Source: Minisyncoccota bacterium (GTDB lineage Bacteria; Patescibacteriota; Minisyncoccia; Phycocordibacterales; UBA9973). From it: 64,000 nt of DNA. The stretch lies in the NCBI GenBank assembly GCA_041657885.1, contig JBBABB010000002.1, positions 25,483 to 89,482 of the forward strand, given 5' to 3'. Both the position numbers and the translations under genes were made by a program. Below are positions 1-57,734 of the stretch, piece by piece; within the stretch, counting starts at the first letter, position 1, and every line of letters begins with the position of its first letter. The notes below the pieces were generated by a model that was not told the origin of the DNA, ran no database searches, and saw only the letters and a list, made by a program, of their open reading frames with translations.

Positions 1-1091
1 AGTTTAACTGTATCCCCTGGCATAACCATTTCTACTCCAGTAGGTAATGTTGCTTCTCCAGTAACATCTGTAGTACGAATGTAGAATTGTGGTTTGTATC
101 CAGTAAAGAATGGTGTGTGACGTCCACCTTCTTCTTTCTTTAAAATATAAACTTCACATTCAAATTCTGAGTGAGGAGTAACAGTTCCTGGTTTTGCAAG
201 AACTTGTCCACGAGTAACATCTTCTTTTTTAATACCACGAATAAGGACACCAGCATTATCTCCGGCCATACCCTCTTTCAAATTTTTGTTGAACATTTCA
301 ATGCCAGTAACTGTTGTTTTTGCTGTAGGTTTAATACCAACAATTTCAACGTCTTCTCCTACTTTTACTATTCCGCGTTCAATCTTACCAGTAACGACTG
401 TCCCACGTCCTTCAATAGAGAAGATATCTTCAATCGGCATTAGAAATGGTTTTGTAATATCACGTTCTGGAATTGGAATGTAAGTATCTAGAGCATTTAC
501 TAGGTCTAAGACCTTCTTTGCCCATTCATCATCATTGCTTGTTGAATCAAGAGCTTTAAGAGCTGAACCGCGGATTACTGGAGCATTTACACCATCATAT
601 CCTTGTTTTGTAAGAAGTTCACGAACTTCTTCTTCAACTAGGTCAAGCATTTCTGGGTCATCCACCATATCACATTTGTTTAAGAATACGATAATTTTTG
701 GAACGTTGACTTGCTTTGCAAGAAGAATGTGCTCACGTGTCTGAGGCATAACCCCATCTGTAGCCGCAACAACAATAATAGCTCCGTCCATTTGAGCGGC
801 ACCAGTAATCATATTCTTAATATAGTCGGCGTGACCTGGAGCATCAATGTGTGCGTAATGACGCGCTGGTGTCCAGTATTCGTTGTGAGAAAGAGCAATC
901 GTGATACCACGAGCTTTTTCTTCTGGAGCTGAGTCAATCTGGTCAACTCCTCTAATCTTGGCACCATATCCAGTGCCTTGTCTTGCTAAAATTTTTAAAA
1001 TAGCCGCAGTCAATGTAGTTTTCCCATGGTCAACGTGACCAATAGTCCCTACATTTACATGGGGTTTATCTCTCTTAAATTCTTCTGCCAT
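1..1091 (-). CDS. tuf: Elongation factor Tu, 3'-truncated by the window edge. N-terminus [30 protein letters not shown].
   Basis: Reverse-strand translation from ATG at 1089-1091 gives the canonical EF-Tu G-domain motifs ([17 protein letters not shown]). The frame stays open to position 1. Confidence 0.95.
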
Positions 1092-1293: not shown

Positions 1294-1337
1294 CTTCCTC
1301 CCCTGCTAAGGGTAGGTATCCAAAGGACGGAGGGGTT
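1294..1337. repeat. GC-rich element, family A half-copy (cTTCCTCCCCTGCTAAGGGtAGGTaTCCAAAGGACGGAGGGGTt).
   Basis: Related copies lie at 24076-24127 (reverse complement, inside cca) and 59572-59666 (full palindromic copy). Confidence 0.7.
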
Positions 1338-4300
1338 ATTGTTCTTTTATAATTAGAGTGATAACTTTTGTTACAACAGTTTTCTCTTTTGAACCTGAAG
1401 TATTTGAACATGTAAGGATGTAAGTAGTTGTTACGATTGGAGATACTATACGAGTACCTTGTTTTGTTCCCCCCGTATCAAATCCAGTACCAGTACAAGA
1501 ATCAGCTAGAGGTGAATCCCATGCGAGAGTTGATGACCTTCCTTCAAAGATTGTAGATGGATTTGCTTCAAATATAGTAGTATCACTTGGAGCATCTATT
1601 ACGCATTTTGCTGGTAGTGGTAATAGTTGCCAGTGTGTAGTAGGAGCACAGCCTGCTGTCACTGATAATGTTTTCAATGACAAAGCCCCGCTATATAAGG
1701 TGAGTATTTTCTCAACACCATAAACCAGAGAAAACGTTGCAGTTCCTGAAACTGCTGTCGTTGAAGGGACTATAGGACTAGTTCCATAACTTGCATCCAC
1801 TCTAGAATTACCAATTTTGTTTGTTACAGCCCAATCTAATTGAGCATCATTACAACTACTATTTCCTTCTGTAATTGAGCAACCACCCGAAGAAAGAGTT
1901 CCACTTGGAGTGACGCATTTACTCCCATCCCAAAATGTTTGAGGGGTGTCAGTACAGTCCGCATTAACTGTTTCTCTCTTTAATTCTACACCATTGTGAT
2001 AAAGATAAAATATTCTTCCTCCGCTAACTGATGTGTTTCCAACATTATAATTTACTGCGCCTGCGTTTGTTGATGAAACTCCTGTTCCTCCACCTCCGAC
2101 AATCGTATTACTAGGTTCTGTCGTAACAGCAGAAACAGAATTTACCGGATAAATTGTATTCCAACTTATATTGACAGGGCAACTACTTTCACCTTCACCT
2201 ATTTTACAACTAAGCGGATTAATCGTTAGTGTTCCCGACGGAGGATTACATATACCGTTTCCTAGAGTTGTATTTACCGGACACTCCGTATTTACCGTAA
2301 TCAAACCGGAAGTTCCTACCGCTGTTGTCGTCGTTGTATTTTGACATCGGATATAGTAACCGTAGGCACCAATTCCATTTGGAGAAGTATAAGTTTTTGT
2401 ATTGATTACATCTTTAGTTGCGGAAGTATATGCGGTTAAATCTGTTTGATTATTATCTAACAGTTTACATTGAACTAAACCTGAGTTTGTCGTCGGAGTG
2501 TAAGTGAAAGAAACATTTGTATTTGGAGTTGTATTGTAAGTTAGTGGAGAAGCAGTGACAGAGACAGTGACAGAGGTACAAGTTCCGGCAATAATTACTG
2601 AACCTGCTACACAAGTTGTACATGTTGGAGGGTTGGTTGCTCCATTTGCACAAGCAGTTGGTGTAAATGTAGCACTGATTGTATGATTGGCTGTGATGTT
2701 AGAAAATGTATATGAATTAGCAACAGTGATAGCACTTCCATCAACTGTTAGTGAAGCTATAGAATAATTAGTAATAGGAGTAATAGTATATATTTGATTA
2801 GAACCATATGCAACACTTGTTACGCCTGTTGGTGTTACTGTTCCATTTGCCCCTGATGAAGCTGTGATTGTTGGTCTAACTCGACAAGCTCCAGAAACAA
2901 AGTCACTACCTGTTGCACACGCCGTATTCACCGTAATCAAACCAGAAGTCCCTACCGCTGTTGTCGTTGTATTTTGACATCGAATATAGTAACCGTAGGC
3001 ACCAATTCCATTTGGAGAAGCATAAGTTTTTGTATTGACTACATCTTTAGTTGCGGAAGCATATGCGGTTAAATCTGCTTGATTATTATCTAACAGTTTA
3101 CATTGAACTAAACCTGAGTTTGTCGTCGGAGTGTAAGTGAAAGAAACATTTGTATTTGGAGTTGTATTGTAAGTTGTTGGAGAAGCAGTGACAGAGACAG
3201 TGACAGAGGTACATATTCCACCTATTATTGCAGAACCTGGCGGACAAGTTGTACACGTTGGATAGTTTGATGCTCCGTTTGAACAAATAAGCGAACAACC
3301 ATATATATTGCTAGGTCCAGTAGCATTATAATTAGTATCTGTAGCTGTTGTACATCCATACTTTGGGGCAGAACAAGTCGTTACTGTTCCACAAGTCCAT
3401 TTCCAGAGAAGTGAAGTATCAACAGGAGAACTTGAATTGAGCGTTCCAATTGTACAGGCACTTGTTCCAGTTGGTTCAGGATTTTGTGGGGTAGAACCAC
3501 TCCCGGGACCACAAGAATCAACAGGAACTGGAACATTGGTCCATGAGCTACAGTTATCGCCTTCATTCGATTCTGTAATCACCCCGCCACCCGCCGCTGA
3601 AGTCTTGTCGGCACAAACTCTGATTGAATACGTTCCAGCAGAACTAAATATATGACTAACACTTATAGTATTTGTTCCACTTGCAGCAAGAGTTGTCATT
3701 GAAGTAGATGTTTTGTCGGTAATAGTTCCTCCACCGTTGGCCGATGATGCAACTTGGAAGAAATTACTAAAGCTTGCACCTGTTGAAGCATTACCATTGT
3801 TTGTAATTGTTGAAGTGAAAGTTTGAGCAACGTTTATGTAAGCAGAAGATGGTGTTGGAGCTGAAGCTGTGAGATTAGGAGCAGGGCATGCTGGAGTTGT
3901 GAATGAGGCAGGAGTAACTGTCCATCCCGTTCCAGTTGTATTCGTCGCACAACCATACACATAGTATATAGTACTTGGAGTTAACCCCGTTTTAGACATT
4001 GTATATACCCCAGTTGTTCTACCTCCTTGGTCTACACAAGTTCCTGGTGAACCAATAGTAACAGAAGTCCCGCGGGCAGAAAGAGTGGCAGGAACACCTA
4101 AAGATGTAACATTTGCCCCAACTGTTGCGCTATTACAAGTTACAGAAGTTGCAGTTGGACTTGTGACAGTTGGAATAACTCCGACAGGTGCACATACTGA
4201 TCCATTCCAAGATGTAGCTACCGGAGTTTGAGAACAGCTAACAGTAATCGGTAAACTAGCAAGTATATTATCAACAGAAGTTCCATTATTTTCTCCATCA

Positions 4301-5859
4301 ACTTTATTTTTAGAAGTAAGAGTCACTGTTCCACTAGTCCCCCCTACAGAAATAGCACTTCCACTAAATGTTACATTGGTGTTACTACCAGAATTCCCAG
4401 AAACGACAGAAGTTCCTCCCGTTAAAGTAGTCGTTACCCCAGATTTTGGATTTGTTGTCCCCCAATTCATCGGAATATTACAACTTCCTTGTCCCGAAGA
4501 AATTGTACAGGCAGGTGAATACGTCGCAGCTAGAGTTCCAGATTGAGCCAATACATTTTGTATTGCACTTTTTGTAGTAGGAGAAGAAGAATTAGTACAA
4601 TCAAGCTGAAAATCGTTACTGTTGTTTTGTAGGCTTGAGACATTTTTTGGCTGGGGACTAAGATTATTATAAAATGTACCATATGTAGTACCATCAGTAT
4701 TATTTTTTAATATACAACCTCCAGAAGTAAGACCACTAACATTAACCACTAAATATGCCGTACCAATACCACTAGAGTCAGAACTACTTTTTTTAACTAA
4801 ATTTTTACTAGGATTATCTTTTTTTGTAAGTGTAACAGTCACAGTTTGAGAAATTAAATTAAACGTACCAATACATCTCACTGTTCTATTCATTGTAACC
4901 TGTCCATCGTTACAATCAGCATCATAAACCCAAGAACAGCCACTAGGACCTGAGCATGATAAACCAGTCCACCCAGCAAATGTTGAACCTGAACTTGGAG
5001 TAGCTGTAATATAGGCAGTTCGATTTAATAAATAATTCCCCGATCCGGTGAAAGACCCCGTGCCAGTTCCAGCAGATTCAGTTGAAAGTGCGTAGACATT
5101 GGAATCACAATTCATCCCATTCCATAAGGTACCAGAAGTACAAGAAGCCGTTGCCGAATCTGAAGATAACTGTACTCCGTTATAGAAAAGACGAAAGCTT
5201 CTAGTGGCTGTGCGATATTGATTAGTATCATCACCAACAATAGTTATAGGGTAAGTAGTACTGCCTGAAGTCAATGATGTTGGAGCTATTACATCAGTAT
5301 TCCAAGGAGTTGTTACAACTCTAGAAATTGCATTAGCAATAGGATTTGCTACACTCCAATTTATTTGGGAATTACAACTATTATATCCTGCCTGAACAGG
5401 ACAATCATTGGCATTTAAAACACCTGAGGGATTAGGCCCACCACCACCGATAGTAACAGTTGCTGACGCTGCAACTGAAGTATATCCAGACCTACTACAA
5501 GTTACAGTATAAGTTGTGGTTTGAGTAGGATTATAGACGACAGAACCAGAGGGAGTTGCTGCTTCAGCTTCTTTTATCCCTAATAAACTCGCAAACTTTT
5601 GTAGAAATGTTGATGGTACAAATGGTAATGGTAAAGTATTATTAATTCCTATAGGAACTCCTCCAGCATTAACAGTAATCGCACAAGTAGTGGCAATCGT
5701 TGATGACCAAGTAAGAGTTACAGGATTCCCTGATGCAACTGAAGTAGGAGATACACTGGCTTGAACGGTAATTCCAGTAAGAGCAGAAGCATTATTTGCA
5801 AAAAATAATGAACCGACCAAAATAATACTTAACACAAAAATTTTTGATAGATTTTTCAT
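1336..5859 (-). CDS. Giant secreted Ser/Thr/Gly-rich surface protein (1507 aa). It carries a CARDB-like module and an internal tandem duplication of about 110 aa.
   Basis: Signal peptide MKNLSKIFVLSIILVGSLFFANNASA. Motif STGASFSNFFQ ... YSIRVCADKTSAAGGGVITESNEGDNCSSW is shared with the proteins at 9320-11965 and 49670-52753. The C-terminal Ig-like module is homologous to that of 9320-11965. Confidence 0.85.
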   Translation of the reverse strand: MKNLSKIFVLSIILVGSLFFANNASALTGITVQASVSPTSVASGNPVTLTWSSTIATTCAITVNAGGVPIGINNTLPLPFVPSTFLQKFASLLGIKEAEAATPSGSVVYNPTQTTTYTVTCSRSGYTSVAASATVTIGGGGPNPSGVLNANDCPVQAGYNSCNSQINWSVANPIANAISRVVTTPWNTDVIAPTSLTSGSTTYPITIVGDDTNQYRTATRSFRLFYNGVQLSSDSATASCTSGTLWNGMNCDSNVYALSTESAGTGTGSFTGSGNYLLNRTAYITATPSSGSTFAGWTGLSCSGPSGCSWVYDADCNDGQVTMNRTVRCIGTFNLISQTVTVTLTKKDNPSKNLVKKSSSDSSGIGTAYLVVNVSGLTSGGCILKNNTDGTTYGTFYNNLSPQPKNVSSLQNNSNDFQLDCTNSSSPTTKSAIQNVLAQSGTLAATYSPACTISSGQGSCNIPMNWGTTNPKSGVTTTLTGGTSVVSGNSGSNTNVTFSGSAISVGGTSGTVTLTSKNKVDGENNGTSVDNILASLPITVSCSQTPVATSWNGSVCAPVGVIPTVTSPTATSVTCNSATVGANVTSLGVPATLSARGTSVTIGSPGTCVDQGGRTTGVYTMSKTGLTPSTIYYVYGCATNTTGTGWTVTPASFTTPACPAPNLTASAPTPSSAYINVAQTFTSTITNNGNASTGASFSNFFQVASSANGGGTITDKTSTSMTTLAASGTNTISVSHIFSSAGTYSIRVCADKTSAAGGGVITESNEGDNCSSWTNVPVPVDSCGPGSGSTPQNPEPTGTSACTIGTLNSSSPVDTSLLWKWTCGTVTTCSAPKYGCTTATDTNYNATGPSNIYGCSLICSNGASNYPTCTTCPPGSAIIGGICTSVTVSVTASPTTYNTTPNTNVSFTYTPTTNSGLVQCKLLDNNQADLTAYASATKDVVNTKTYASPNGIGAYGYYIRCQNTTTTAVGTSGLITVNTACATGSDFVSGACRVRPTITASSGANGTVTPTGVTSVAYGSNQIYTITPITNYSIASLTVDGSAITVANSYTFSNITANHTISATFTPTACANGATNPPTCTTCVAGSVIIAGTCTSVTVSVTASPLTYNTTPNTNVSFTYTPTTNSGLVQCKLLDNNQTDLTAYTSATKDVINTKTYTSPNGIGAYGYYIRCQNTTTTTAVGTSGLITVNTECPVNTTLGNGICNPPSGTLTINPLSCKIGEGESSCPVNISWNTIYPVNSVSAVTTEPSNTIVGGGGTGVSSTNAGAVNYNVGNTSVSGGRIFYLYHNGVELKRETVNADCTDTPQTFWDGSKCVTPSGTLSSGGCSITEGNSSCNDAQLDWAVTNKIGNSRVDASYGTSPIVPSTTAVSGTATFSLVYGVEKILTLYSGALSLKTLSVTAGCAPTTHWQLLPLPAKCVIDAPSDTTIFEANPSTIFEGRSSTLAWDSPLADSCTGTGFDTGGTKQGTRIVSPIVTTTYILTCSNTSGSKEKTVVTKVITLIIKEQ

Positions 5860-5987
5860 AGTGATAAATTTATAATAATAAAAAAAATATTTATTAAAAC
5901 TAAAGATAATATTAAAAAATAAAATATCTTAATTATTAGAATTATACCACATAAAAAGTATATTAAGAATAGTAATGAGCAAAAAGA

Positions 5988-6026
5988 ATAGCCGTTACGT
6001 GAAAACGCAACGGCTCCTTTTTATAA
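5988..6026 (-). terminator. Rho-independent terminator for the lipoprotein gene on the minus strand.
   Basis: Hairpin AGCCGTTaCG / CGcAACGGCT is followed by a T-run on the minus strand. Confidence 0.6.
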
Positions 6027-6038
6027 ACCAATTAGAGT

Positions 6039-6968
6039 TCATTTCGGATGTATAAAGGTTTCCCTATTGGCATCTTTTTGACTGCCTGGATAATACACCC
6101 AGACTAAAGTGTCCTTTGTAAGTGTCATAATATTATAATTATTATATTCACACAAAGTCAACACAGATCCAGTCAAAGACCATGACCCCTCTTGAGTCTC
6201 ATTCTCACTGCCACAACGAACTTCACCGTTATCATAAACCCCTATTTTAGAAGGTGTAAGATAAAATTTTATCAAATCATCCTTCATGCATTCCCATATG
6301 TCTGCCTCAACCCAGGGATAACCAGATTCTTGTTGGAATTCCAACTTGATTTTTGACCATGGAGCTAAACAAAGTAGTTTTTCCTCATCTGTAAAGACAG
6401 GATCCTTAACTACAACGGTGACACTAGCTGTAGCTGACTTATTAGCTAATCCATAAACAGTTACAGTGTAATCTGTCGTAACCCCAGGTCCAACCTCAGT
6501 AGAACCAGAAAGACCATTTACTCCACCAAAGGTTGCCTTAATGGAAAGTGCATTTTCCGAAGTCCAACTGATAGTTGTCATTTCCCCTTCAAAAATTTCT
6601 GAGGGAGTAGCAGTAATAGCAACAGTCAGAACCTCAGTAGGCTCTTTTGCAACAATTTTTAGTTGCTGTTGAGCAGGAGCTATATCCATATTGCCTATTG
6701 GATAGGCGGTACAGGTAACAGTGATATTTTTATCTATCACTATTTCCTTGGTTCCTGAAAGAGGAACCGTGTCTTTGTTCACTATCACAATGCTAGCGTT
6801 TTCTACACTCCATCGGATAGTAACAACATCGCCAATCTCACACGAATCAGCCGAAGCTGAAAAAACACGTATAATTGGCTTAAGATTCACAACCGGTTCT
6901 TCTTCACATCCTGTAAACATAAGCAGGGAAAGAAAAAGACCCATCAGAAGAGAAAGCATCTTTTTCAT
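6039..6968 (-). CDS. Secreted lipoprotein with two Ig-like modules (309 aa).
   Basis: Lipobox LLMFTGC follows an N-terminal hydrophobic segment. Modules with conserved W and C match those in the giant proteins. Confidence 0.7.
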   Translation of the reverse strand: MKKMLSLLMGLFLSLLMFTGCEEEPVVNLKPIIRVFSASADSCEIGDVVTIRWSVENASIVIVNKDTVPLSGTKEIVIDKNITVTCTAYPIGNMDIAPAQQQLKIVAKEPTEVLTVAITATPSEIFEGEMTTISWTSENALSIKATFGGVNGLSGSTEVGPGVTTDYTVTVYGLANKSATASVTVVVKDPVFTDEEKLLCLAPWSKIKLEFQQESGYPWVEADIWECMKDDLIKFYLTPSKIGVYDNGEVRCGSENETQEGSWSLTGSVLTLCEYNNYNIMTLTKDTLVWVYYPGSQKDANRETFIHPK

Positions 6969-7030
6969 GATATGATTTATTTGTTTATTTTTTCAAGAGG
7001 ATTTGTTTAAATTTATCGTGACAAACGCTT

Positions 7031-7128
7031 ATTTATCCCCACACCTATATTTCCATCAAAAATATATAACAGCAGGGTATTTTTACTAAAAAAGCAGAAT
7101 GATGGGAATATGGGTGTGGGGATTTATC
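7031..7128. repeat. P-family MITE-like element. TIRs atttatCCCCACACCTATATTTCCATC / GATGGGAATATGGGTGTGGGGatttatc.
   Basis: The inverted pair is visible. The inner sequence aaaaagcagaatgatgggaatat recurs in the copy at 20539-20683. Confidence 0.8.
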
Positions 7129-7207
7129 AAGATAAAATTAAACAAATCCGAACAATATGCCTTTGTACTAATTATCTAAGTAATTAAGCATCATGTCAAG
7201 GAGTTTT

Positions 7208-7350
7208 ACCCCCACACCCACTTTTTCATTGCTTTAATATTGTGCCATTAAAATATTCAGAAATATATAAAATATCTTTATAAATCAAGTATAAATAATA
7301 ATATTCCTAAAAAATAAAGCACAATGATGAAAAAGTAGGTGTGGGGGTTT
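7208..7350. repeat. P-family MITE-like element. TIRs CCCCCACACCCACTTTTTCAT / ATGAAAAAGTAGGTGTGGGGG with an AT-rich core of about 100 bp.
   Basis: A perfect inverted repeat of about 21 bp. Confidence 0.8.
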
Positions 7351-7360
7351 ATGCACTTTT

Positions 7361-7527
7361 TATCCCCACACCTATATTTTTATAGATTTTCATCTTTTAA
7401 ATAAAAAACTACTTAATTGGTATTTCTAATAAATTATCGCGTAAAAATAGACATTTTGTATTCAAAATAATAAAAATATAGGTGTGGGGATTTATCCCAC
7501 CTTGCCACCTATATTTTTATTGCAGGC
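7361..7527. repeat. P-family element (tatCCCCACACCTATATTTTtata ... AAAAATATAGGTGTGGGGATTTATC) plus an adjacent partial inverted fragment ccaCCTATATTTTTATTGCAGGC.
   Basis: Inverted TIRs are present. The 3' fragment shares TTTTTATTGCAGGC with the copy at 1209-1287. Confidence 0.75.
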
Positions 7528-7771
7528 TCCTTTTTATCCTAATTTTAAGTTGAAATAATGCCCTGCCGTCCTTTTTTAGAGACGATTCTCTTTTCCTTGC
7601 ATCACTCTCATCAAAATATGATTCATAATATCTAAGTTCAAAAGGACGACGACTTTTAGTGGAAAAAACTTTACCATTATTATGATCCGAGAGCCTGCGT
7701 CGTAAATCATTTGTTGAGCCAATGTAAATATTATTGTCTTTTTTACTTTTTAAAATATATAAGTAGAACAT
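7517..7771 (-). CDS. GIY-YIG nuclease-superfamily small protein (YhbQ/UPF0213-like, 84 aa).
   Basis: N-terminal motif YLYILKSKKDNNIYIGSTNDLRRRLSDHN is a classic GIY-YIG. The gene is flanked on both sides by same-orientation copies of the P-family TIR. Confidence 0.8.
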   Translation of the reverse strand: MFYLYILKSKKDNNIYIGSTNDLRRRLSDHNNGKVFSTKSRRPFELRYYESYFDESDARKRESSLKKDGRALFQLKIRIKRSLQ

Positions 7772-7800
7772 ATATTTATATTATATGATTTATGACTATA

Positions 7801-7826
7801 AAAATATAGGTGTGGGGATTTATCCA
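7801..7826. repeat. Solo P-family TIR (AAAATATAGGTGTGGGGATTTATCC). It contains a perfect DnaA-box-like nonamer TTATCCACA.
   Basis: Identical to the right TIR at 7473-7497. Confidence 0.7.
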
Positions 7827-7866
7827 CAGGGCTCCAAAACCCTTTCCATAGTAGCAAGGACGGTCC

Positions 7867-8583
7867 TTGCTAATTTTTTATAAACCTTCAAAATTATTTA
7901 TGCAATCATTGAGATATTGCATTAATATACCATTTATGCTAGGATGTGGACTGGAGATTAGGTTAAACCTAAGTTCCAGTAGATATATGAATAATAAAGC
8001 TAAAAAAGGGGAATATTTAGACATTCTATTAAGATCAAAGAATAGCGTATTTTCAACGAAAGATATCGCTTTGCTTTGGCGTGATGTTCAAACAACGGCA
8101 TCGCAAGTAAGATTGAACTATTATGTTAAAGCTGGGAAGCTTATTAGAATTCGTAGAGGTATTTATGCAAAAGATAAAAATTATGATAAATATGAATTTG
8201 CGACTAAGATTTTTAGACCCTCATATATAAGTTTTGAAACTGTCTTAGGTGCATCTGGTATGACTTTCCAATATTATGGAAATATTTTTATTGCTTCATA
8301 TTTAAAGAGGGAGATTAAATGTGACGGACAAACTTATTCTTTTGTAAAAATGAAGGATTCTATTTTAAGTAACCCAAAAGGAATAGATCAAACAGGTGAA
8401 TATGCTATTGCTTCAAAAGAAAGAGCTTTCTTGGATACAATTTATAGAAGTAAAAAGTATTATTTTGATAATCATTCTCCGCTTGATTGGGATAAGGTAT
8501 TTGAAATGTTGCCAATTTATAATAATAAAAAAATGGCAAAAACTGTGCAAAAATATTATAAGGATTATAAAACTACTAAATAA
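7867..8583 (+). CDS. AbiEi-family type IV TA antitoxin / transcriptional regulator.
   Basis: wHTH region carries the LIRIRRGIYAK (RRG.Y) signature and the gene abuts the AbiEii-like gene downstream. The 5' end is uncertain. An internal ATG (MNNKAKKGEYLDILL) about 120 nt in is the likelier start. Confidence 0.65.
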   Translation: MLIFYKPSKLFMQSLRYCINIPFMLGCGLEIRLNLSSSRYMNNKAKKGEYLDILLRSKNSVFSTKDIALLWRDVQTTASQVRLNYYVKAGKLIRIRRGIYAKDKNYDKYEFATKIFRPSYISFETVLGASGMTFQYYGNIFIASYLKREIKCDGQTYSFVKMKDSILSNPKGIDQTGEYAIASKERAFLDTIYRSKKYYFDNHSPLDWDKVFEMLPIYNNKKMAKTVQKYYKDYKTTK

Positions 8584-8585
8584 AT

Positions 8586-9290
8586 ATGACATTAAATTAT
8601 CCAATACATAAAAATATTCTCGTACAGATACTTATTGATATTTACTCGGATACGACAATTAGCCCATATTTAGGTTTTAAAGGTGGAACGGCTGCTTATT
8701 TGTTCTATGGACTTGATCGTTATTCTGTTGACTTAGATATTGATATTTTAGATGAATCAAAAGAAGATTACATCTTTGAACAAGTTGAAAAAATAGGGAG
8801 AAAATATGGAGAAGTAAAAGAATCTCAAAAGAAAAGATTTAATCTAATATTTTTAATATCGTATGAGAATAAAGAAAAAAATGCTCAGAATATAAAAATT
8901 GAGATTAATCGTAGGTCTTTTGATTCAAAATATGAAGTTCGTGCCTTTAATGGTATTTCAATGCTTGTAATGGTCAAAGAAGATATGTTTGCTCATAAGC
9001 TTGTAGCCATGCACGAACGACTAGGAATAACTAATCGTGATATTTTTGATGTATGGTTTTTCTCAAAAAATAACTGGGAAATTAATAAAGAAATTATAGA
9101 AAAAAGAACAGGAATGTCATATAAAAAATTTCTTGAAGTATGCATTAAAGAATTAGAAAAGATGAATAATAACAATATTCTCCATGGTCTTGGTGAGCTT
9201 ATAACAGAAAAACAGAAAGCTTGGGTAAGATCAAAATTAAAACTTGAGACAATTTTACAACTAAAATTAAGATTAGAATCCGAAAATTAA
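8586..9290 (+). CDS. AbiEii/AbiGii-family nucleotidyltransferase toxin (DUF1814-like), 234 aa.
   Basis: Motif FKGGTAAYLFYGLDRYSVDLDIDI is the GGTAL..R.S.DID nucleotidyltransferase signature. Start lies 2 nt after the upstream stop. Confidence 0.7.
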   Translation: MTLNYPIHKNILVQILIDIYSDTTISPYLGFKGGTAAYLFYGLDRYSVDLDIDILDESKEDYIFEQVEKIGRKYGEVKESQKKRFNLIFLISYENKEKNAQNIKIEINRRSFDSKYEVRAFNGISMLVMVKEDMFAHKLVAMHERLGITNRDIFDVWFFSKNNWEINKEIIEKRTGMSYKKFLEVCIKELEKMNNNNILHGLGELITEKQKAWVRSKLKLETILQLKLRLESEN

Positions 9291-9319
9291 TTTCATCATA
9301 AATATTTTTTGAGTGTTTT

Positions 9320-11965
9320 TTACGTTTCTATAATTTTTATACTACTAACTGTAATGGTAGCTTGCTTAAATTCAGTTATGTTATCTCTTGTACAAGAAAT
9401 TTTATAAACAGTTGTTTTCAATGGAACTACCGTTGAGCTACCATTTGGGTTATTAGTTCCTGTACTCCATTCACCAAATCCTGTTTCATTAAGAGCTTTG
9501 CAATTATCAGCATTTGAAGTCCACATAAGAACAGAAGATCTTCCTTTAAATATTTTAGCTGGATTTGGGGTAAAGGTTATTTTTAATAAGTTTCCACCGT
9601 TACCACCAAAAATATTATCCCCGGTGTCCGTACCTGTACCTGTGCCTGTACCTGTGCCTGTACCTGTACCTGTGCCTGTATCTACACTTGTATCGTCACC
9701 AATAGACGCTACACACTTCCCTCCATCCCATCCTGTTCCACTTTCACAACTTGCCCCAACCGGCAGAATATCAAGTGGTAAACTATTATGATTAAGGAAA
9801 AATGTAGTTCCCCCATAAGCAACTGGAATGTTTTTCCTTTCTACTGGGAAAGTAGGAATGACAGCAGATGAAACGACAATTGTATTGTTTGGATTTTTAG
9901 TAACATTAGTTTCTTTTCCTGTTATAGGATTAATAATGTCTATAGTCAAAGTTGTCTCACAATCACTTGCGTTTTCTTCTATCTCACAATCATCTCCAGA
10001 AAGAGTTCCAACAGTACCACCTTCAGGCGAAATATCAACAGGAACCCATGCGCTACAATTATTGTCCTCAACTAACTCTATAACTATTCCTAGACCAGCA
10101 GCAGAATTTTTATCTGCACAAGCTCTAATATAAAATGTTCCAGTAGCTTCAAACGAAATCGATTGTAAAGCGACCGCTGTTTTATCAACTGCAAGAGCAG
10201 ACATCCCCGGTACATCATAATCAGTTAATGTTCCTTCCCCTTCTGGAAGTGTTGATGTTTGAAATAAATTGGTAAAACTTTTACCTGTTGAAATTGAGCC
10301 TTGATTTTTTATTGTTGAGGAAAAATTTGTTGGCGTTTTAACTATCACCGAAAGTGGAGATGGAATTGAAGCTATTAGATCAGGTCTTGGCTCACAGATT
10401 GTTCCATTCCAAATCGTTTTAGGTGCACATGTCGCATTTATCGTCGCACCATTTGGAGTAATAGTTTCTCCGTTGTGATTCAAAAAGAAAGTTGTATTTG
10501 GATAATCAACTGTTATATTTGGTTTTTCTACTGGGAAAGTATTGATAATCGCAGAAGGAACAACGAGTGTATTTGGTTCAGGAATATTTTTTGTGACATT
10601 TGTTGGTGCTTTTGTAACCGGCTTATAAACATTTAATGTCAATGTTGTCTCACAATTGCTTTCATTCATTTTTATAACACAATCATTTCCACTTATACTT
10701 CCACCATTTGGGTCAACTGGCATTGTAACAATAACTTCTAACCAATCACTACAATTATCCCCTTCATCACTTTCTGTAATTTCACCTAAACTATCTCTAT
10801 TGCTTTTATCTGCACAAGCCCTGACAAAAAACGTTCCTTCTTCACCAAATACATACACCTGAGAAGCAGTACCAGAAGCCCCTTCGTTTAATTTCCCCAT
10901 TGTGGTTGGGTCTAAACCTATAGCTATTGTCTCGTCTTCCTTATCAGTCGTTACTTGGAAAAAGTTTGAAAAACCTTTATTGGTAGAGACATCTCCCGTA
11001 TTGCTAATTATTGAGGTATATGAATTAGAAACACCAACTTCTACTTTTGCTGGAGTATAAGTTGGAACTGAAGCTTTAAGATTAGGTTTATTTAGAGGAA
11101 CTTCAGGATTTTCACTATTACCACATCCCCAATCTATTCCGTAATTTTTTGCAACACTAGCTGAAAACCAACATGAATAAGGTGTGCAGTTATTCCCTTC
11201 ATCTGACTCATTGACATCTGACTCTACATCTGTACAAAATCTTACTTTATACCCTGTATAAGTCCCATTGGCTCCATTATTCTCTGCTGGGAAAGTAACT
11301 GGGGAGAAATTTGAAACTGCGTGACCCGCAGCAACTATCATTGGCATCTTATATTTACCGGTAATGAGGGCATTTTCTTTCCATGTAGTATTAGGAATAG
11401 TTGCTGGCTCAATAATGTTACCATTTTGGTCTAACCTTGCAGTTTTAGAAATTATTTCGTAAGAATTATAAAAAGATGTTTTTGTGCTAGAACCAATAGA
11501 GTTCCACACTCCTGGTCGAAAAGTTACGGGGTTACCAGCAGGATATCTCGCATTATTGTATTGAGAAGAACCGTTCGAATTTATCGTCAAATCTGATGGC
11601 TGATAAGTAACAACAAGAGTAGGAGTTATTGTGGTTTTTGTTACTTCAAAATTTTTACATATTAATTCATACTCTGTTGTGATTACAGGATAAACTGAAG
11701 TTGAAACTGTGGTTGTAACTGTAGGGTTTGAAATAGGATGTGATGAAATAAAAATATTACTTCCACCGTTATAATCAAAAAAATCACAAGAACTAGCTCC
11801 AACTACTTTCCAGGAAAGTGTTGCTGATTGACCTTCAATAATACTAGTCGGACTAGGGGCAAAATTGGTGATAACAATATCTGTTACAGCAAAGGTTTTA
11901 CTTGCAATAAATAAAGAGCCAAAAACAAATAGACCTGACACAAAAATTTTTAATAGATTTTTCAT
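9320..11965 (-). CDS. Giant secreted surface protein (881 aa) with two CARDB-like modules and a (TG)n linker. Paralog of the protein at 1336-5859.
   Basis: Signal peptide MKNLLKIFVSGLFVFGSLFIASKTFA resembles the paralog's. Motifs FVRACADKSNRDSLGEITESDEGDNCSDW and YIRACADKNSAAGLGIVIELVEDNNCSAW are present. The C-terminal Ig-like module is homologous to the paralog's. Confidence 0.85.
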   Translation of the reverse strand: MKNLLKIFVSGLFVFGSLFIASKTFAVTDIVITNFAPSPTSIIEGQSATLSWKVVGASSCDFFDYNGGSNIFISSHPISNPTVTTTVSTSVYPVITTEYELICKNFEVTKTTITPTLVVTYQPSDLTINSNGSSQYNNARYPAGNPVTFRPGVWNSIGSSTKTSFYNSYEIISKTARLDQNGNIIEPATIPNTTWKENALITGKYKMPMIVAAGHAVSNFSPVTFPAENNGANGTYTGYKVRFCTDVESDVNESDEGNNCTPYSCWFSASVAKNYGIDWGCGNSENPEVPLNKPNLKASVPTYTPAKVEVGVSNSYTSIISNTGDVSTNKGFSNFFQVTTDKEDETIAIGLDPTTMGKLNEGASGTASQVYVFGEEGTFFVRACADKSNRDSLGEITESDEGDNCSDWLEVIVTMPVDPNGGSISGNDCVIKMNESNCETTLTLNVYKPVTKAPTNVTKNIPEPNTLVVPSAIINTFPVEKPNITVDYPNTTFFLNHNGETITPNGATINATCAPKTIWNGTICEPRPDLIASIPSPLSVIVKTPTNFSSTIKNQGSISTGKSFTNLFQTSTLPEGEGTLTDYDVPGMSALAVDKTAVALQSISFEATGTFYIRACADKNSAAGLGIVIELVEDNNCSAWVPVDISPEGGTVGTLSGDDCEIEENASDCETTLTIDIINPITGKETNVTKNPNNTIVVSSAVIPTFPVERKNIPVAYGGTTFFLNHNSLPLDILPVGASCESGTGWDGGKCVASIGDDTSVDTGTGTGTGTGTGTGTGTDTGDNIFGGNGGNLLKITFTPNPAKIFKGRSSVLMWTSNADNCKALNETGFGEWSTGTNNPNGSSTVVPLKTTVYKISCTRDNITEFKQATITVSSIKIIET
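9632..9700. repeat. Hexanucleotide microsatellite (cctgtacctgtg)n encoding the in-frame dipeptide run DTGTGTGTGTGTGTGTGTDTGD.
   Basis: Tandem CCTGTA/CCTGTG units are visible inside the CDS. Confidence 0.85.
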
Positions 11966-12121: not shown

Positions 12122-12171
12122 ACCCCCACACCTACTTTGGGATTCAATTATCAAAGTAGGTGTGGGGATGG
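12122..12171. repeat. Short P-family hairpin (ACCCCCACACCTACTTTG ... CAAAGTAGGTGTGGGGAT) in the divergent promoter / 5' leader region of nusA.
   Basis: A 17-bp inverted repeat with the same CCCCACACCTA core as the other P elements. Confidence 0.75.
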
Positions 12172-12209
12172 AAATTTTTATATTTCGCTCGGTTCCATTA
12201 AAAATTACC

Positions 12210-13388
12210 ATGTTAGATTTAAAAACAATGAGGTCTGCCCTAGAACAACTTGAGGTTGAAAGAAAAATTCCTCGAGAAAAAATAATTGATGCAATAGAGC
12301 AAGCTCTCGCCGCTGCCTATAAAAAAGATTACGGCAAAAAAGGTCAAATTATCAGAGCAAAGATTGATATAGAAACTGGGAAAATGGAATTTTACCAGAT
12401 TAAAATAGCTGTTGATGATACTTTAGTTAGAATGACCAGTGAAGATGATGAGGAAGAAATTGCTGAAGATGATGAAAGAGTGCGTTTTAACGAAGAACAT
12501 CATATCTTAATAGAAGATGCTAAAAAAATAAAAAATGATGCCATCCCAGGCGAAGAATTAATATTCCCTCTTGAGAATAAAGAGGATTATGGGCGTATCG
12601 CTGCGCAAACAGCCAAGCAAGTCATAATCCAAAAAATCCGCGAAGCAGAGAGAGGTGCAATAATAGAAGAATACGGAACAAAAGAAGGAGAAATAATAAA
12701 CGGCTTCGTTTCAAAAGTAGAAAGAGGAATTGTTTATATTGATTTCAATCGCGCCACTGGAATAATTCTTCCAGAAGAACAAATCCCCGGTGAATTCTAT
12801 AAACGCGGAGAAAGAATTCGCGCATATCTTTACCAAGTAGAAGAAACTCCACGCGGAGTAAATCTTAAACTCTCACGTACTCATCCACAACTTATTGAGG
12901 GATTGTTCGCTATGGAAGCGCCAGAAATAGCTTCGGGAGTTGTTGAAATTAAAGCAATCGCGCGTGAAGCTGGGAGTCGTTCCAAGATTGCTGTATTCTC
13001 AAATGATGAACATGTGGACCCAGTTGGCTCTTGTGTCGGGCAAAAAGGGGTTAGAGTAACTACAGTTATGAGTGAATTAAACGGTGAAAAAATAGATATT
13101 ATTCCTTGGTCTCCTGACGCAGGAACATATATCTCAAGTGCAATTTCTCCAGCAAATGTCTTAAATATTGAAGTAAATGAAGCGGAACATAAGGCAACAG
13201 TGGAAGTTGCAAATGACCAACTCTCTCTTGCTATCGGTAAAGGAGGACAAAATGTTCGTCTTGCTGCAAAACTTACTGGATGGAGAATAGATATAAAGGG
13301 CCTTGAAGAAAATGGCAACCAAATTAAAGAAAATGTAGAAAGTGATGATATACTAGATGACGGTATTGTCGATGACGGTACGAATTAA
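12210..13388 (+). CDS. nusA: Transcription termination/antitermination factor NusA.
   Basis: N-terminus MLDLKTMRSALEQLEVERKIPREKIIDAIEQAL, an S1 domain and KH repeats (GQKGVRV ... AIGKGGQNVRLAAKLTGWRIDI). The ORF track starts at 12162. The ATG at 12210 is the likelier start. Confidence 0.9.
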   Translation: MLDLKTMRSALEQLEVERKIPREKIIDAIEQALAAAYKKDYGKKGQIIRAKIDIETGKMEFYQIKIAVDDTLVRMTSEDDEEEIAEDDERVRFNEEHHILIEDAKKIKNDAIPGEELIFPLENKEDYGRIAAQTAKQVIIQKIREAERGAIIEEYGTKEGEIINGFVSKVERGIVYIDFNRATGIILPEEQIPGEFYKRGERIRAYLYQVEETPRGVNLKLSRTHPQLIEGLFAMEAPEIASGVVEIKAIAREAGSRSKIAVFSNDEHVDPVGSCVGQKGVRVTTVMSELNGEKIDIIPWSPDAGTYISSAISPANVLNIEVNEAEHKATVEVANDQLSLAIGKGGQNVRLAAKLTGWRIDIKGLEENGNQIKENVESDDILDDGIVDDGTN

Positions 13389-49669: not shown

Positions 49670-52600
49670 ATGGAAAAAAACCCTAAAAAAAGTAAAGCTC
49701 TCATCATAACAATAATTTTAATTGTCTTGCTTTTAATTGCTGGGTATTTTATTTTTAAGAATAAAGATAGTATTTTCAAAATTAAAACTTCTACTAATAC
49801 TTTTACTTCACTTCCTGCATCAGAGAATAAACCGGGATTTCTCGCTAAAATATTCTCCCCACTTCTTCCATCAAGTAATTCAAAAAATCTAGATACGGGT
49901 GAGAACATCAAGACTACATACGCAGAAGCGGGAGAAAACATTAAGAAAGGGGACATCGTTTATAAAGTAGGTACAAATAAAAATAATTTGCCTATAGTGA
50001 GAAAAACTGGACTTCAGAATCAAAATAAATTCGGTACTGCCCTTGAAGATATAAATATGGGAAGCTTTGGCAATATTGCTGTTGATAGTAGTTTCTGGGG
50101 AAGTATAAAAGATTTTTTTAATAACACAACAGGTAATATTGGAAACTGGGTAGGTGGAATATTCAGAGGTAATGGTGGAACTGGCCCTAGTAGTAATACG
50201 TGCACAAATGGTGCAACTAATCCGACTTTGTGTACTACTATTGGTGGTAATTGTATAAATAATGCAACTAATCCACCCCTCTGTACGACTATGGATAACG
50301 ATACAAACATTTTCCCCACAGTCACAGTTATAGCAACCCCAGCATCAATTGCAAAAGGTGAATCATCCACTATTAGTTGGGAATCAACAAATGCAGATGC
50401 TTGTAATGCTGGCACTGGTAATGGGACGGGGAAGACGGGGTCATTCTCAACTGGAATACTTCAATCAAGTAGGTCATATACAGTGACTTGTACTGGAGTA
50501 AATGGAACAGGTAGTGGAAATATCTTAGTGGCTGTTGGTGGAGGAGGAAATGTTTGTCCTACCGGCTGGACGGGGACTTACCCTAACTGTACTGATCCCA
50601 ATTCTAATAGTTGCCCTGCCGGTTGGACAGGGACTTTTCCTAACTGTACCAATACTGGAAACTGTCCTGTCGGTTGGACCGGAACTTATCCTGTCTGTAC
50701 TGACCCCAATTCCAATGTTTGCCCTGCGGGTTGGATGGGAACCTACCCTGACTGTACTGACCCCAATTCCAATAGTTGTCCTGTCGGGTGGACGGGGACT
50801 TTTCCTAACTGTACCAATATTGGGGGCTGCCCTCTTGGCTGGACGGGGACTTACCCTGACTGTATTGCCCCTAATTTTATATTTCCCTCTGTCACTGTTT
50901 GGGCAACACCACCAATAGTTGAATACGGTGAAAAATCGGAGATTGGTTGGGAATCAAAAAATACTGAATACTGCGTGGAGGGTGCTGTGGGTAATGCATC
51001 GCCCGATGGTAGTGTAAATAATAAAAAAGGTATAAAAGGAAAACTTACGACGGGAGCATTGCTTAGTAGTAAATCATTTACAATAACTTGTTATGACAAG
51101 AATGGAGGAGGAGTGAGTGGAAGCGTTGTTGTTTTCGTCAACCTAGCTGGAGTCCCAGATCTTCGAGCCACTGACCCGACACCAACGACAGTTCTCGTTG
51201 GAGTAAACACAATGTTCTATTCAGATATAATAAACCAAGGAACTGCATCGACTGGAGAAACTACTTTCTACAACATAATGCAATGGGCAAAACCCGCTTT
51301 TACAACGACTACGACTGGTGCAACTGGTGCGACTAGTCCTGACTCAAGTGACTCTACTGGCGGTTCTTCTTCCTCTGAAACAAACACCTTTATGGATGAA
51401 TCAAAATTAATCCCTATTGATTTGCCAAAAGTCAGGATGAAAACTATTCCAGCGGGAGAATCTCAACCTTTTACAATTGTCTATAATTTTAAAGACATAG
51501 GTACATACTATATAAGAGTTTGTGCCGATAAACAAAGTCAGACAGATGCTGGAAATATTAATGAAGGAACAAATGAAAATAACAATTGCAGCAATTGGGT
51601 AGCAATAGCAGTCACAAATTCACTTCCAACACCATGTCCTCAGCTAACAGATGCTACTGGTAAATGTGTTTCTGTAGATGAATGTCTGGCACTGAATAAA
51701 ATCGTTTCAGGGGATCAATGTGTTGACGACCCATCGGTTTGTCCTCCCCCTAAAATAAAAGATACTACTGGTAAATGTATAGATGCATCTGAAGTTATAC
51801 CACCAAATATTTGTAAAGATATAGAACAAAACCCACTAACTTTCACCCCTGAAGAGAAAGCCAGATTGGCAGTATTGCTCCGTAAGTTTTATCTAATATC
51901 CTCAACCCTTAGAACAAGTGACGATATCTCCACAATATATAGCGACATTGACCAACAGAAAATTTTTATGGGACAAATTGATGGATTAACAAAGCAGTGT
52001 TATTTGCAGATAAATGATACAGATGGATACAAAAATTTCTGTTCAAGAAATCCGAGTTTGTGTAAAACCACAGATATACCTACTTCTGGTATACCTACTC
52101 CTGGCTATAAAGACAATTATTATACACAAGGACAAAACTTAACATTAAGACGCGGAAATCCTTGGTATCAAAAAACGTCGGGTGGAACATTCCCTTACAC
52201 AGGTAATAATGTTTTTGATAAAAATGGTGTTTCGATTAAAGACCCAGAAGGAAAACCAATCACTGCTGGATACATGGATTACAACTGGTTAGAAGGTAAT
52301 TATATAGATAACGGAAATGGTAATTATTCTCCATATTTAAGCCCAAGCCAAAAAGCAAGTGGGGCGTCTTCAACTGCTTCATCAGATGGTCCTGGCTGTA
52401 AGGTTGTATCTGGTTATTATTATGGAACATTAACAAGAGATGTAATTTTAACAAAAGATACCCCTGATATAGGCATACTCATACTAATGATGCCATATCA
52501 AGGAATAATAAATGCTGCAATAGAAGCACTTACTCCGACTAAGGTATGGAGTGCAGGAGAAAGTTGTGATAAATTTAATTTAGACATTAGGGATGATCAA

Positions 52601-52753
52601 AATAATCTAATAACCAATAATTGTTATTACAACAATACAAAAATATTTGGAAATTGGAATGCCCCTCCAAGTCAAACTTTACTTGAAAGTGGCTGTAAGT
52701 GGGTAGATGGAGTGGATATGATAAACACGGAAAGGATTTTGAATATTTGGTAG
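49670..52753 (+). CDS. Large secreted protein (1027 aa) with Ig-like modules, a tandem CPxGWTGTYPxCTDPNSN repeat array and a CARDB-like module.
   Basis: Signal anchor ALIITIILIVLLLIAGYFIF. Six tandem Cys-rich units of 17-19 aa. YIRVCADKQSQTDAGNINEGTNENNNCSNW. Confidence 0.8.
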   Translation: MEKNPKKSKALIITIILIVLLLIAGYFIFKNKDSIFKIKTSTNTFTSLPASENKPGFLAKIFSPLLPSSNSKNLDTGENIKTTYAEAGENIKKGDIVYKVGTNKNNLPIVRKTGLQNQNKFGTALEDINMGSFGNIAVDSSFWGSIKDFFNNTTGNIGNWVGGIFRGNGGTGPSSNTCTNGATNPTLCTTIGGNCINNATNPPLCTTMDNDTNIFPTVTVIATPASIAKGESSTISWESTNADACNAGTGNGTGKTGSFSTGILQSSRSYTVTCTGVNGTGSGNILVAVGGGGNVCPTGWTGTYPNCTDPNSNSCPAGWTGTFPNCTNTGNCPVGWTGTYPVCTDPNSNVCPAGWMGTYPDCTDPNSNSCPVGWTGTFPNCTNIGGCPLGWTGTYPDCIAPNFIFPSVTVWATPPIVEYGEKSEIGWESKNTEYCVEGAVGNASPDGSVNNKKGIKGKLTTGALLSSKSFTITCYDKNGGGVSGSVVVFVNLAGVPDLRATDPTPTTVLVGVNTMFYSDIINQGTASTGETTFYNIMQWAKPAFTTTTTGATGATSPDSSDSTGGSSSSETNTFMDESKLIPIDLPKVRMKTIPAGESQPFTIVYNFKDIGTYYIRVCADKQSQTDAGNINEGTNENNNCSNWVAIAVTNSLPTPCPQLTDATGKCVSVDECLALNKIVSGDQCVDDPSVCPPPKIKDTTGKCIDASEVIPPNICKDIEQNPLTFTPEEKARLAVLLRKFYLISSTLRTSDDISTIYSDIDQQKIFMGQIDGLTKQCYLQINDTDGYKNFCSRNPSLCKTTDIPTSGIPTPGYKDNYYTQGQNLTLRRGNPWYQKTSGGTFPYTGNNVFDKNGVSIKDPEGKPITAGYMDYNWLEGNYIDNGNGNYSPYLSPSQKASGASSTASSDGPGCKVVSGYYYGTLTRDVILTKDTPDIGILILMMPYQGIINAAIEALTPTKVWSAGESCDKFNLDIRDDQNNLITNNCYYNNTKIFGNWNAPPSQTLLESGCKWVDGVDMINTERILNIW
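50540..50880 (+). repeat. Tandem DNA repeats with a 51-57 nt period, encoding CP.GWTGT(Y/F)P.CT(D/N)PNSN units.
   Basis: The six units are visible in the translation. Confidence 0.8.
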
Positions 52754-55476: not shown

Positions 55477-55483
55477 TTAAACA

Positions 55484-56449: not shown

Positions 56450-56540
56450 TTCCTCCCCTCCTTACCAAGGAGGGGAATGAGGGGAGGTTCTTAATTAATT
56501 AGGAACCCCTCCCCAGCCCTCCCCAAAGGGAAGGGAATCC
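56449..56540. repeat. Family B GC-rich palindromic element, intergenic copy (reverse complement of the rsmA copy).
   Basis: TTCCTCCCCTCCTTaccAAGGAGGGGAATGAGGGGAGGTTCTTAATTAATTAGGAACCCCTCCCCAGCCCTCCCCAAAGGGaAGGGAA. Confidence 0.85.
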
Positions 56541-56565
56541 TATTTATTAATGTTATAATATAAAA

Positions 56566-56976: not shown

Positions 56977-56985
56977 TAATGTGTG

Positions 56986-57051
56986 AATTCCCCTCTTGAG
57001 GGGTGCCTGAAAGGCGGGGTGGATGAATTTGAGGGGAATTAAAATTCTTTC
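56986..57051. repeat. Family C element, shortened copy (AATTCCCCTCTTGAGGGGTGCCTGAAAGGCGGGGTGGAT...GAGGGGAATT).
   Basis: The left arm matches 44458-44497. Outer inverted ends are retained. Confidence 0.75.
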
Positions 57052-57078
57052 AGTAACAAATTATGTTATAATTATAAT

Positions 57079-57732: not shown

Positions 57733-57734
57733 GT

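Follow-up and report, generated by a model that had tools for sequence, protein, structure and literature searches.

Modular CARDB proteins with a common C-terminal tail in a variable tuf–nusA island of a Paceibacteria-class genome

Patescibacteria (the Candidate Phyla Radiation, CPR) account for a substantial part of the diversity of bacteria and are believed to live on other cells, and little is known of how they display proteins at their surface or recognize a partner. Three long genes in a 64,000-nucleotide (nt) stretch of a Minisyncoccota bacterium genome (GenBank assembly GCA_041657885.1, contig JBBABB010000002.1, forward-strand positions 25,483 to 89,482; the whole stretch is called the window below) raise the question of what such proteins are made of, how they would be held on the cell and how they vary. 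A preliminary description, made from the sequence alone, had presented their products as paralogous giant secreted proteins sharing a CARDB-like module. On balance we favour a reading in which two of them, encoded by open reading frames (ORFs) 1 and 2, are Sec-exported, variable modular surface proteins, docked by a C-terminal tail and making contacts through their exposed modules. The third, ORF3, would carry the same modules on a different chassis, inside a type IV secretion system (T4SS) locus. All three ORFs are present, with lengths of 1507, 881 and 1027 amino acids (aa), and they do share modules, although at 881–1507 aa they are better termed large than giant. Their architectures, and that of a putative lipoprotein encoded nearby, are as follows (TM, transmembrane; T and B, two further common modules).

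1336..5859, minus strand: ORF1, 1507 aa; signal peptide, T, B, InlB-B-repeat (Flg_new_2), B, CARDB, Cys-rich, duplicated units, B, B, T, tail
6039..6968, minus strand: putative lipoprotein, 309 aa; lipobox-like Cys21, T (partial), T, lipocalin-like domain (Pfam Lipocalin_4, E = 5 × 10−5)
9320..11965, minus strand: ORF2, 881 aa; signal peptide, T, degenerate CARDB, CARDB, B, CARDB, B, (Gly-Thr)n linker, T, tail
49670..52753, plus strand: ORF3, 1027 aa; TM anchor, Cys repeats, T, six copies of CPxGWTGTYPxC, T, CARDB, C-terminal domain ending NTERILNIW

The suggestion that the shared module is a CARDB domain was borne out by a search with the Pfam model PF07705 (gathering score 22.7 bits), in which ORF1 scored 35.6 bits (E = 1.1 × 10−8) and ORF2 56.5 bits (E = 3.5 × 10−15). 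ORF3, at 20.1 bits, falls just below the gathering score, yet it matches the ORF2 modules in BLASTP at E = 1 × 10−12 and aligns with the others. The four copies counted previously, one in ORF1, two in ORF2 and one in ORF3, were all found, and a fifth, degenerate copy in ORF2 has to be added to them.

3547..3879, minus strand: ORF1 CARDB (residues 661–771), from Pfam PF07705 and the five-copy alignment
10028..10384, minus strand: ORF2 CARDB module 3 (residues 528–646), modelled jointly with the B module that follows it
10721..11089, minus strand: ORF2 CARDB module 2 (residues 293–415), from Pfam and the alignment
11156..11605, minus strand: ORF2 degenerate CARDB (residues 121–270), the fifth row of the alignment; Pfam gives three stretches in ORF2
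51155..51613, plus strand: ORF3 CARDB (residues 496–648, with an insert), from the sub-threshold Pfam match, BLASTP and the alignment

Both signatures quoted for the start and end of the module were recovered in a proper alignment of the five copies, which has 20 invariant positions, among them P2, L4, N28, S33, T34, F38, N40, G83, T84, R88, C90, D92, E104, E107, N110, C111 and W114; the ORF3 copy departs from the rest in the first motif (TTFYNIMQ) and in an insert of ~35 aa. A profile of the five copies reached 3011 clusters (50% identity) at E ≤ 1 × 10−3, 1568 at E ≤ 1 × 10−10 and 384 at E ≤ 1 × 10−30. In the 183 best-matching proteins, which hold 685 copies of the module, conservation is 99% for the Cys pair and 92–98% for N28, G30, E104 and N110, figures that are biased upward because these 183 proteins are the top matches. 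Conservation at this level makes the cysteine bracket a genuine subfamily signature, as had been proposed. The acid/amide cluster D...E-x-[ND]-E-x-N-N is kept as well (D92, E104, E107 and N110, at 90–98% in the same copies), and aligns with DEEN...VELNENNN of the solved structure 2KL6.

A structural model of ORF2 residues 526–757 (CARDB plus B), calculated from a 55-row alignment of module copies, has a mean predicted local distance difference test score (pLDDT) of 95.6 and forms a β-sandwich superposable on a solved CARDB domain; tandem fibronectin type III (FnIII)/immunoglobulin (Ig) matrix proteins such as RbmA are also among its fold matches. In the model, Cys91 closes strand F and Cys112, an isolated bridge residue, directly precedes strand G, and the pair would probably staple the base of a 20-residue loop bearing the acid/amide cluster. 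The B module contains two hairpin Cys pairs, 135–144 and 215–226, and the pairs of both module types probably form local disulfides. The composition of ORF1, ORF2 and ORF3, with its strong excess of T, S, G and N, would suit a chance likeness among low-complexity, Thr/Ser-rich ORFs; this explanation is refuted by the Pfam matches above the curated cut-off, by the 1568 clusters of the profile search and by a model of this quality that matches a solved CARDB structure, which leave it practically no probability.

The homologous C-terminal module reported for ORF1 and ORF2, labelled Ig-like earlier, here called T and ~80 aa long, was found in both by BLASTP (E = 5 × 10−6 to 1 × 10−7), and an iterated hidden Markov model (HMM) concurs. 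ORF1 and ORF2 each have a further copy at the N terminus, and ORF3 and the lipoprotein contain two copies each; the lipoprotein's share in this terminal module, also claimed earlier, rests on the same two methods. Against a profile of the CARDB–B didomain, T gave an hhalign probability of 0.6%, and its Ig-like label is at most putative. The B module, absent from the preliminary description, is ~105 aa long with four cysteines and occurs four times in ORF1 and twice in ORF2. The module maps come from an HMM iterated within the four proteins, a somewhat circular procedure, and agree with an all-against-all BLASTP of the window's proteins, in which links are confined to ORF1, ORF2, ORF3 and the lipoprotein, the module proteins being linked at E = 1 × 10−29 to 1 × 10−12.

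Export of ORF1 and ORF2 would proceed by Sec through cleavable signal peptides, predicted as MKNLSKIFVLSIILVGSLFFANNASA before L in ORF1 (...NNASA/L) and as MKNLLKIFVSGLFVFGSLFIASKTFA before V in ORF2 (...KTFA/V). Both have the n-h-c organization with an AxA-type site, and residues 3–22 are the sole strong hydrophobic stretch, with no further TM segment. The noted kinship of the two signal peptides extends to the DNA, which is 73% identical over 104 nt, ~25 nt of 5′ leader included. The lipoprotein opens with a lipobox-like sequence (...LLMFTG/C) whose −3 residue is non-canonical; its collinear homolog in L002, the closest species genome, has the canonical ...FIIG/C. The remainder of ORF1 and ORF2 may be pictured as a bead-like string of β-rich, non-catalytic modules: CARDB, four-Cys B, InlB-B-repeat and T. 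Such a build recalls the accessory modules (CARDB, PKD and Ig) that secreted hydrolases carry and, with them, the idea of proteins that capture substrates by binding carbohydrates or polymers and so scavenge nutrients. We consider this improbable, since searches of Pfam and NCBIfam found no catalytic domain in ORF1 or ORF2, the listed homologs have none either, and the fast cassette turnover of the locus would be unusual for nutrient-binding proteins.

That turnover is seen in an 11-kb island holding ORF1, ORF2 and the lipoprotein gene, with tuf on one side and nusA on the other.

1..1091, minus strand: 5′ part of tuf (elongation factor Tu, EF-Tu), the conserved left flank; its translation matches L002 EF-Tu
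2281..3258, minus strand: recent tandem duplication within ORF1, with a 633-nt period and copies 91–93% identical (repeat families D1 and D5)
9599..9725, minus strand: ORF2 linker segment swapped in a strain variant, with the breakpoint at ~9726
12162..13388, plus strand: nusA, the conserved right flank

A comparison across related genomes, proposed earlier as a check on variability, was strongly positive: the flanks are conserved and the contents replaced. L002 DNA is 80–83% identical in window positions 1–1172 (tuf, 83%) and from 12210 onward (nusA, H+-pyrophosphatase (PPase), tig, clpP and rny), and inside 1173–12209 it matches in one 135-nt CARDB fragment only. At the protein level, the housekeeping neighbours are 74–93% identical to those of L002 (NusA and PPase 92–93%) and the large protein 37% locally. 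The L002 island differs in content, with genes for a lipoprotein and for a five-CARDB protein of 1547 aa, and with a RayT-like gene; the lipoproteins of the two genomes are collinear, with 22% identity (E = 4 × 10−9). More distant relatives carry, at the same site, proteins of 936–1292 aa with one or two CARDB modules or unrelated large secreted proteins, so that four relatives, L002 included, have 1, 2, 2 or 5 CARDB modules per protein there (936–1547 aa). The ORF1 CARDB module is 60–70% identical to modules of the relatives L011 and L018, versus 37–43% to its paralogs in the window, and this greater closeness to other genomes indicates modules that are old and shuffled rather than recently duplicated here.

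In three of the four relatives (L002, L005 and L011; not L018) a lipoprotein-like gene lies directly upstream of the CARDB-module gene. These genes, on the same strand as the tail-bearing gene, occupy 7744–8682 in L002 (lipobox IIGC), 8008–9501 in L005 (lipobox AIAC) and 7484–8743 in L011 (lipobox LISC); the L005 and L011 products, unlike that of L002, have no detectable homology to the window lipoprotein. The unit duplicated within ORF1, ~211 aa long, opens with a CxNGAxNxPTCTTC motif.

A strain variant, P0001 (contig L085), is 98.6% identical from nusA through approximately codon 746 of ORF2, and identity stops at ~9726. Past this breakpoint, a Cys-rich repeat (ATNYPxCTT) takes the place of the Gly-Thr linker, and identity over the last 300 nt is 79%; the variant, the single close relative, is a mosaic with 88% identity overall. 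Over the 746 collinear codons the ratio of non-synonymous to synonymous polymorphism (pN/pS) between window and variant is 0.26. The breakpoint and the low pN/pS therefore point to variation by recombination or cassette exchange, not hypermutation, and point hypermutation or positive selection was rejected on the same ratio; no reverse transcriptase of a diversity-generating retroelement, invertase or silent-cassette archive was seen among the window genes. The tuf–nusA island would accordingly be a recombination hotspot in our reading, with diversity arising by cassette replacement and internal duplication. The DNA of the Gly-Thr linker (9621–9692) is a periodic repeat of 6/12/18 nt. A phage or plasmid origin was dropped, as the contig, 109 kb long, is chromosomal and the island is flanked on it by tuf and nusA, with genes for H+-PPase, trigger factor, ClpP and RNase Y nearby.

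Replacement of whole cassettes is typical of phage-receptor loci and favours a rival in which the proteins form a structural or protective coat, S-layer-like or an envelope scaffold, that varies to escape phages or predators using it as a receptor and not to attach to a host. The all-β, bead-like build with no ligand-specific domain, the matrix proteins of the RbmA type among the fold matches and the defence and toxin–antitoxin genes within the island (AbiEi/AbiEii and GIY-YIG) are further points in favour of a coat. It is nevertheless judged unlikely: no S-layer homology (SLH) or other known S-layer anchoring domain was found in Pfam or NCBIfam, and domain numbers that vary so widely among relatives are hard to square with a regular lattice.

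How ORF1 and ORF2 would stay on the cell is suggested by their extreme C termini. The ending ..II(K)E noticed earlier is a local instance of a tail, P-x-Φ-x-E-x-COOH, in which Φ stands for F, I, Y, V or W.

1339..1368, minus strand: ORF1 tail, ...VITLIIKEQ-COOH
9323..9346, minus strand: ORF2 tail, ...SSIKIIET-COOH

Among 185 homologs the penultimate residue is Glu in 155 (84%, versus a background of 2.3%), position −6 is Pro in 113 and position −4 is Φ in ~149; the pattern Φ-x-E-x fits 137 and the full P-x-Φ-x-E-x 107, several of the exceptions being visibly truncated. The tail is preceded by at least four types of last domain (T-like, WxWxC, CxNGAxNPPxC repeats and DCGGxC), followed by a linker that is usually Lys-rich or Pro/Gly-rich. 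In an independent test on the non-CARDB family of a nusA-adjacent protein of the genome L016, 41 of 42 homologs end in ...P[GSTA][YF]xE[FI], and all of the nusA-adjacent large secreted genes in the Patescibacteria loci examined carry the tail. The non-CARDB family (L016 6821–9085; P0208–P0249) comprises secreted Paceibacterota proteins of ~500–830 aa with GWxW...GWIxF repeats and no Pfam domain.

In ORF1 and ORF2 a single residue follows the conserved Glu before the C terminus, with no C-terminal hydrophobic segment or TM helix, and eight tails searched at E ≤ 10 matched no Pfam or NCBIfam model. The tail is not a signal of the sortase or exosortase type. P, Φ and E stand at i, i+2 and i+4, which points to an extended strand whose conserved residues share one face, and the alternation looks more like a free β-strand peptide than a cleavage site. 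In the least certain part of the explanation, the tail (P/x-x-Φ-x-E-x-COOH) would serve in docking or sorting and so keep the proteins on the cell surface; the exposed modules may then be what makes contact with partner cells, host cells or other surfaces. A wider proposal is put forward tentatively: that the tail is an undescribed, lineage-wide signal of Paceibacteria, (K/R-rich or P/G-rich linker)-P-x-[FYIVW]-x-E-x-COOH, independent of domain and free of a TM helix, a docking or sorting device that may tether exchangeable surface proteins, cassette-swapped at hotspots such as tuf–nusA, to a conserved envelope receptor. Its companion idea, equally tentative, is that the ORF3 family could be the missing exposed, adhesin-like part of the essential Patescibacteria T4SS.

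ORF3 had been taken for a plain paralog of the other two, a view that its structure contradicts: it is membrane-anchored at its N terminus, its C-terminal domain is a different, conserved one, and its slot in the T4SS locus is fixed in 4/4 contexts. The proposed surface-protein family therefore holds for ORF1, ORF2 and the lipoprotein as secreted or anchored modular paralogs, and not for ORF3 as an equivalent member. The components of its locus are listed below.

45556–63458: complete-looking T4SS locus, downstream of uvrD–ksgA; it includes two single-TM proteins of 298 and 1054 aa
51632..52750, plus strand: conserved C-terminal domain of the ORF3 family
52864–55476, plus strand: VirB6-like protein, 870 aa, at least six TM segments
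57079–57732, plus strand: TraC-like protein
57735–59570, plus strand: VirB4
60713–61981, plus strand: fusion of a T4SS pilin with a soluble lytic transglycosylase (SLT)
61983–63458, plus strand: peptidoglycan-binding protein (the rest of the T4SS locus spans 52864..63458)

The window and 3/3 independent contigs share the gene order uvrD, ksgA, a gene for ~295 aa, a gene for ~1000–1200 aa, ORF3 family, VirB6-like, PrgI, TraC-like, VirB4 and pilin/SLT. The C-terminal domain of ORF3 has 22 homologs, all hypothetical Paceibacterota proteins with the same anchor, ME(N)KPKKSKALIIT..., and the same ending, NTERILNIW, and the region between anchor and C-terminal domain ranges in this family from almost nothing to a ~600-aa run of modules (T, Cys-repeat and CARDB). 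An AlphaFold model of the domain (23 sequences) is of low confidence (pLDDT 62.5; predicted template modelling score, pTM, 0.35), and a profile search of PDB sequences gave nothing significant; beyond CARDB, ORF3 has no Pfam, NCBIfam or PDB match and no homology to a named VirB, Prg or Tra component or to PrgB. Its conserved slot among T4SS genes thus makes ORF3, by position, a candidate exposed component of the machine: probably a membrane-anchored, conserved protein of the locus whose variable extracellular stalk is the exposed, contact-making part. ORF3 residues ~295–400 (50552–50870) consist of six tandem Cys motifs of ~17 aa, CPxGWTGTYPxCTDPNSNx, and related CxNGAxNPPxC motifs recur in ORF1 and, just ahead of the C-terminal tail, in many homologs.

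With ORF3 in such a position, all three proteins could be accessory adhesins or substrates of the T4SS or of pilus machinery, the tail being its recognition signal. C-terminal signals are used by some T4SS substrates, and ORF3 does combine CARDB and T modules with a place in the T4SS locus. Gram-positive-type T4SSs depend on surface adhesins, and a survey of Patescibacteria T4SSs, which also reported the linkage of ksgA and virB4 in Paceibacteria, detected no PrgB-like adhesin (PMC12102498); in Saccharibacteria the T4SS is essential for epibiotic growth (PMC12857230). ORF1 and ORF2, however, belong to an unrelated island ~38 kb from the T4SS genes and bear Sec signal peptides, ORF3 is without the tail, its family ending instead in NTERILNIW, and the tail-bearing genes of relatives adjoin nusA, not virB4. 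A common T4SS role for the three is accordingly held to be very doubtful.

Several observations weigh against ORF1 and ORF2 being docked, contact-making surface proteins. T has no Pfam match, and a search of PDB sequences at E ≤ 10 was also empty; the ORF1 and ORF2 tails themselves are without the common Pro at −6; and the window genes, housekeeping only in the rest of the window, include no candidate, sortase-like or other, for a tail receptor or a tail-processing enzyme. Surface retention, disulfide formation and binding are steps that we infer. The population-level picture consists of one breakpoint, from one close strain variant, and of between-species comparisons; a metagenome scan for close relatives of ORF2 led to a single locus, on the P0001 contig. 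Co-culture has been achieved for only a few Paceibacteria (PMC12102498), and an episymbiotic lifestyle is not established for the lineage. No adhesion-specific or ligand-specific feature was found in these proteins, and the host-attachment arsenal of the preliminary description is best called plausible.

The window has a GC content of ~35%, carries ordinary chromosomal genes (tuf, nusA, H+-pyrophosphatase, trigger factor, clpP, rny, pnp, ksgA and uvrD) and corresponds to part of a 109-kb contig, k141_60400, in the ENA metagenome assembly ERZ27247322. When its NusA is compared with the GTDB species genomes, the nearest matches, 82–91% identical, belong to metagenome-assembled genomes (MAGs) labelled Candidatus Paceibacteria, Nomurabacteria or Paceibacterota; together with the Paceibacterota-named homologs, these matches identify the organism as a Paceibacteria-class member of the CPR/Patescibacteria.

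Repeats and other genes in or near the island complete its description (features without a strand are marked as unstranded; REP, repetitive extragenic palindromic).

1214–1281 (1214/1271), unstranded: REP-like inverted pair at the left island edge
5990..6015, minus strand: terminator-like hairpin with an 11-bp stem and a T run, between the lipoprotein gene and ORF1
7030..7824, unstranded: seven REP-like repeats in both orientations, around the small GIY-YIG ORF
7517–7771, minus strand: GIY-YIG ORF, 84 aa (Pfam annotation of a called gene)
7867–8583, plus strand: AbiEi, forming with AbiEii a toxin–antitoxin pair inserted between the paralogs
8586–9290, plus strand: AbiEii, paired with AbiEi
12124..12167 (12124/12157), unstranded: REP-like inverted pair at the right island edge
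17628–18704: Fic/DOC-family gene between clpP and rny; the same gap in L002 is without a gene

The REP-like motif TAGGTGTGGGG (19-nt consensus ATAGGTGTGGGGATTTATC) has 13 copies in the window, versus 0.32 expected, and most of them form intergenic inverted pairs (1214–1281, 7030–7824, 12124–12167 and 20544–20675); it is present in the same-species contig L085 and nearly absent from L002. ORFs resembling RayT/IS200 (REP-associated tyrosine transposase-like, recognized by eye from the N-terminal ...YHIYNRGVDKR...) occur in L002 (8837–9655) and in the relative L019 (5526–6182), within the variable region adjoining nusA, and the window island has no such gene despite its REP-like repeats. In another contig, L082, an AbiEii gene and a PemK toxin gene come after the ORF3-family gene. 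A promoter scan was uninformative, with 50 sites versus 42.9 expected.

The locus offers three handles on the biology of these cells. The replacement island is bounded by tuf and nusA and can be followed in population metagenomes; the tail, being independent of protein family, could mark the displayed surface proteome and serve as bait for a receptor; and ORF3, conserved and module-bearing within the T4SS locus, gives an entry point where known adhesins were reported lacking.

Among known systems, the closest structures to the module are the solved CARDB domains of PF1109 of Pyrococcus furiosus (3IDU/2KL6) and MA_4588 of Methanosarcina (2L0D); the 3IDU entry title describes CARDB solved with di-metal ions. 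These domains have Thr and Val where the present subfamily has its near-invariant Cys pair (R-x-C-A-D...N-N-C-[GS]-x-W); the subfamily also has the motif N-x-G-x-x-S-T-G-x-x-F-x-N-x-F-Q and forms arrays of up to 11–15 copies with other modules interleaved. Literature searches on CARDB in Patescibacteria or CPR, on a CPR sorting signal and on large or giant surface proteins gave no relevant match. The proteins are members of a large, already annotated and functionally uncharacterised class, the 'CARDB domain-containing protein' entries at NCBI from Candidatus Paceibacterota MAGs (for example, P0002 and P0014), with which they have in common the module, a mosaic architecture, the signal peptide and the tail; ORF1 and ORF2 are only 30–45% identical to these entries over part of their length.

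PrgB of pCF10, an adhesin of a Gram-positive conjugative T4SS, is a large exposed protein, as ORF3 probably is, and like ORF3 is encoded within a monoderm-type T4SS locus, although the two share no sequence or domain homology and ORF3 is anchored by an N-terminal membrane segment where PrgB has LPXTG. The tail resembles the LPXTG/sortase, PEP-CTERM/exosortase, PGF-CTERM and GlyGly-CTERM systems in placing a short C-terminal motif on many otherwise unrelated secreted proteins of one lineage, and it differs from sortase and exosortase signals in that no TM helix or basic stretch follows the motif. The island as a whole is comparable to the variable surface-protein islands and contingency loci known as a general concept, which likewise combine conserved flanks, replaced contents and an intragenic mosaic breakpoint, and which, like the region between tuf and nusA, contain mobile or defence genes and repeats.

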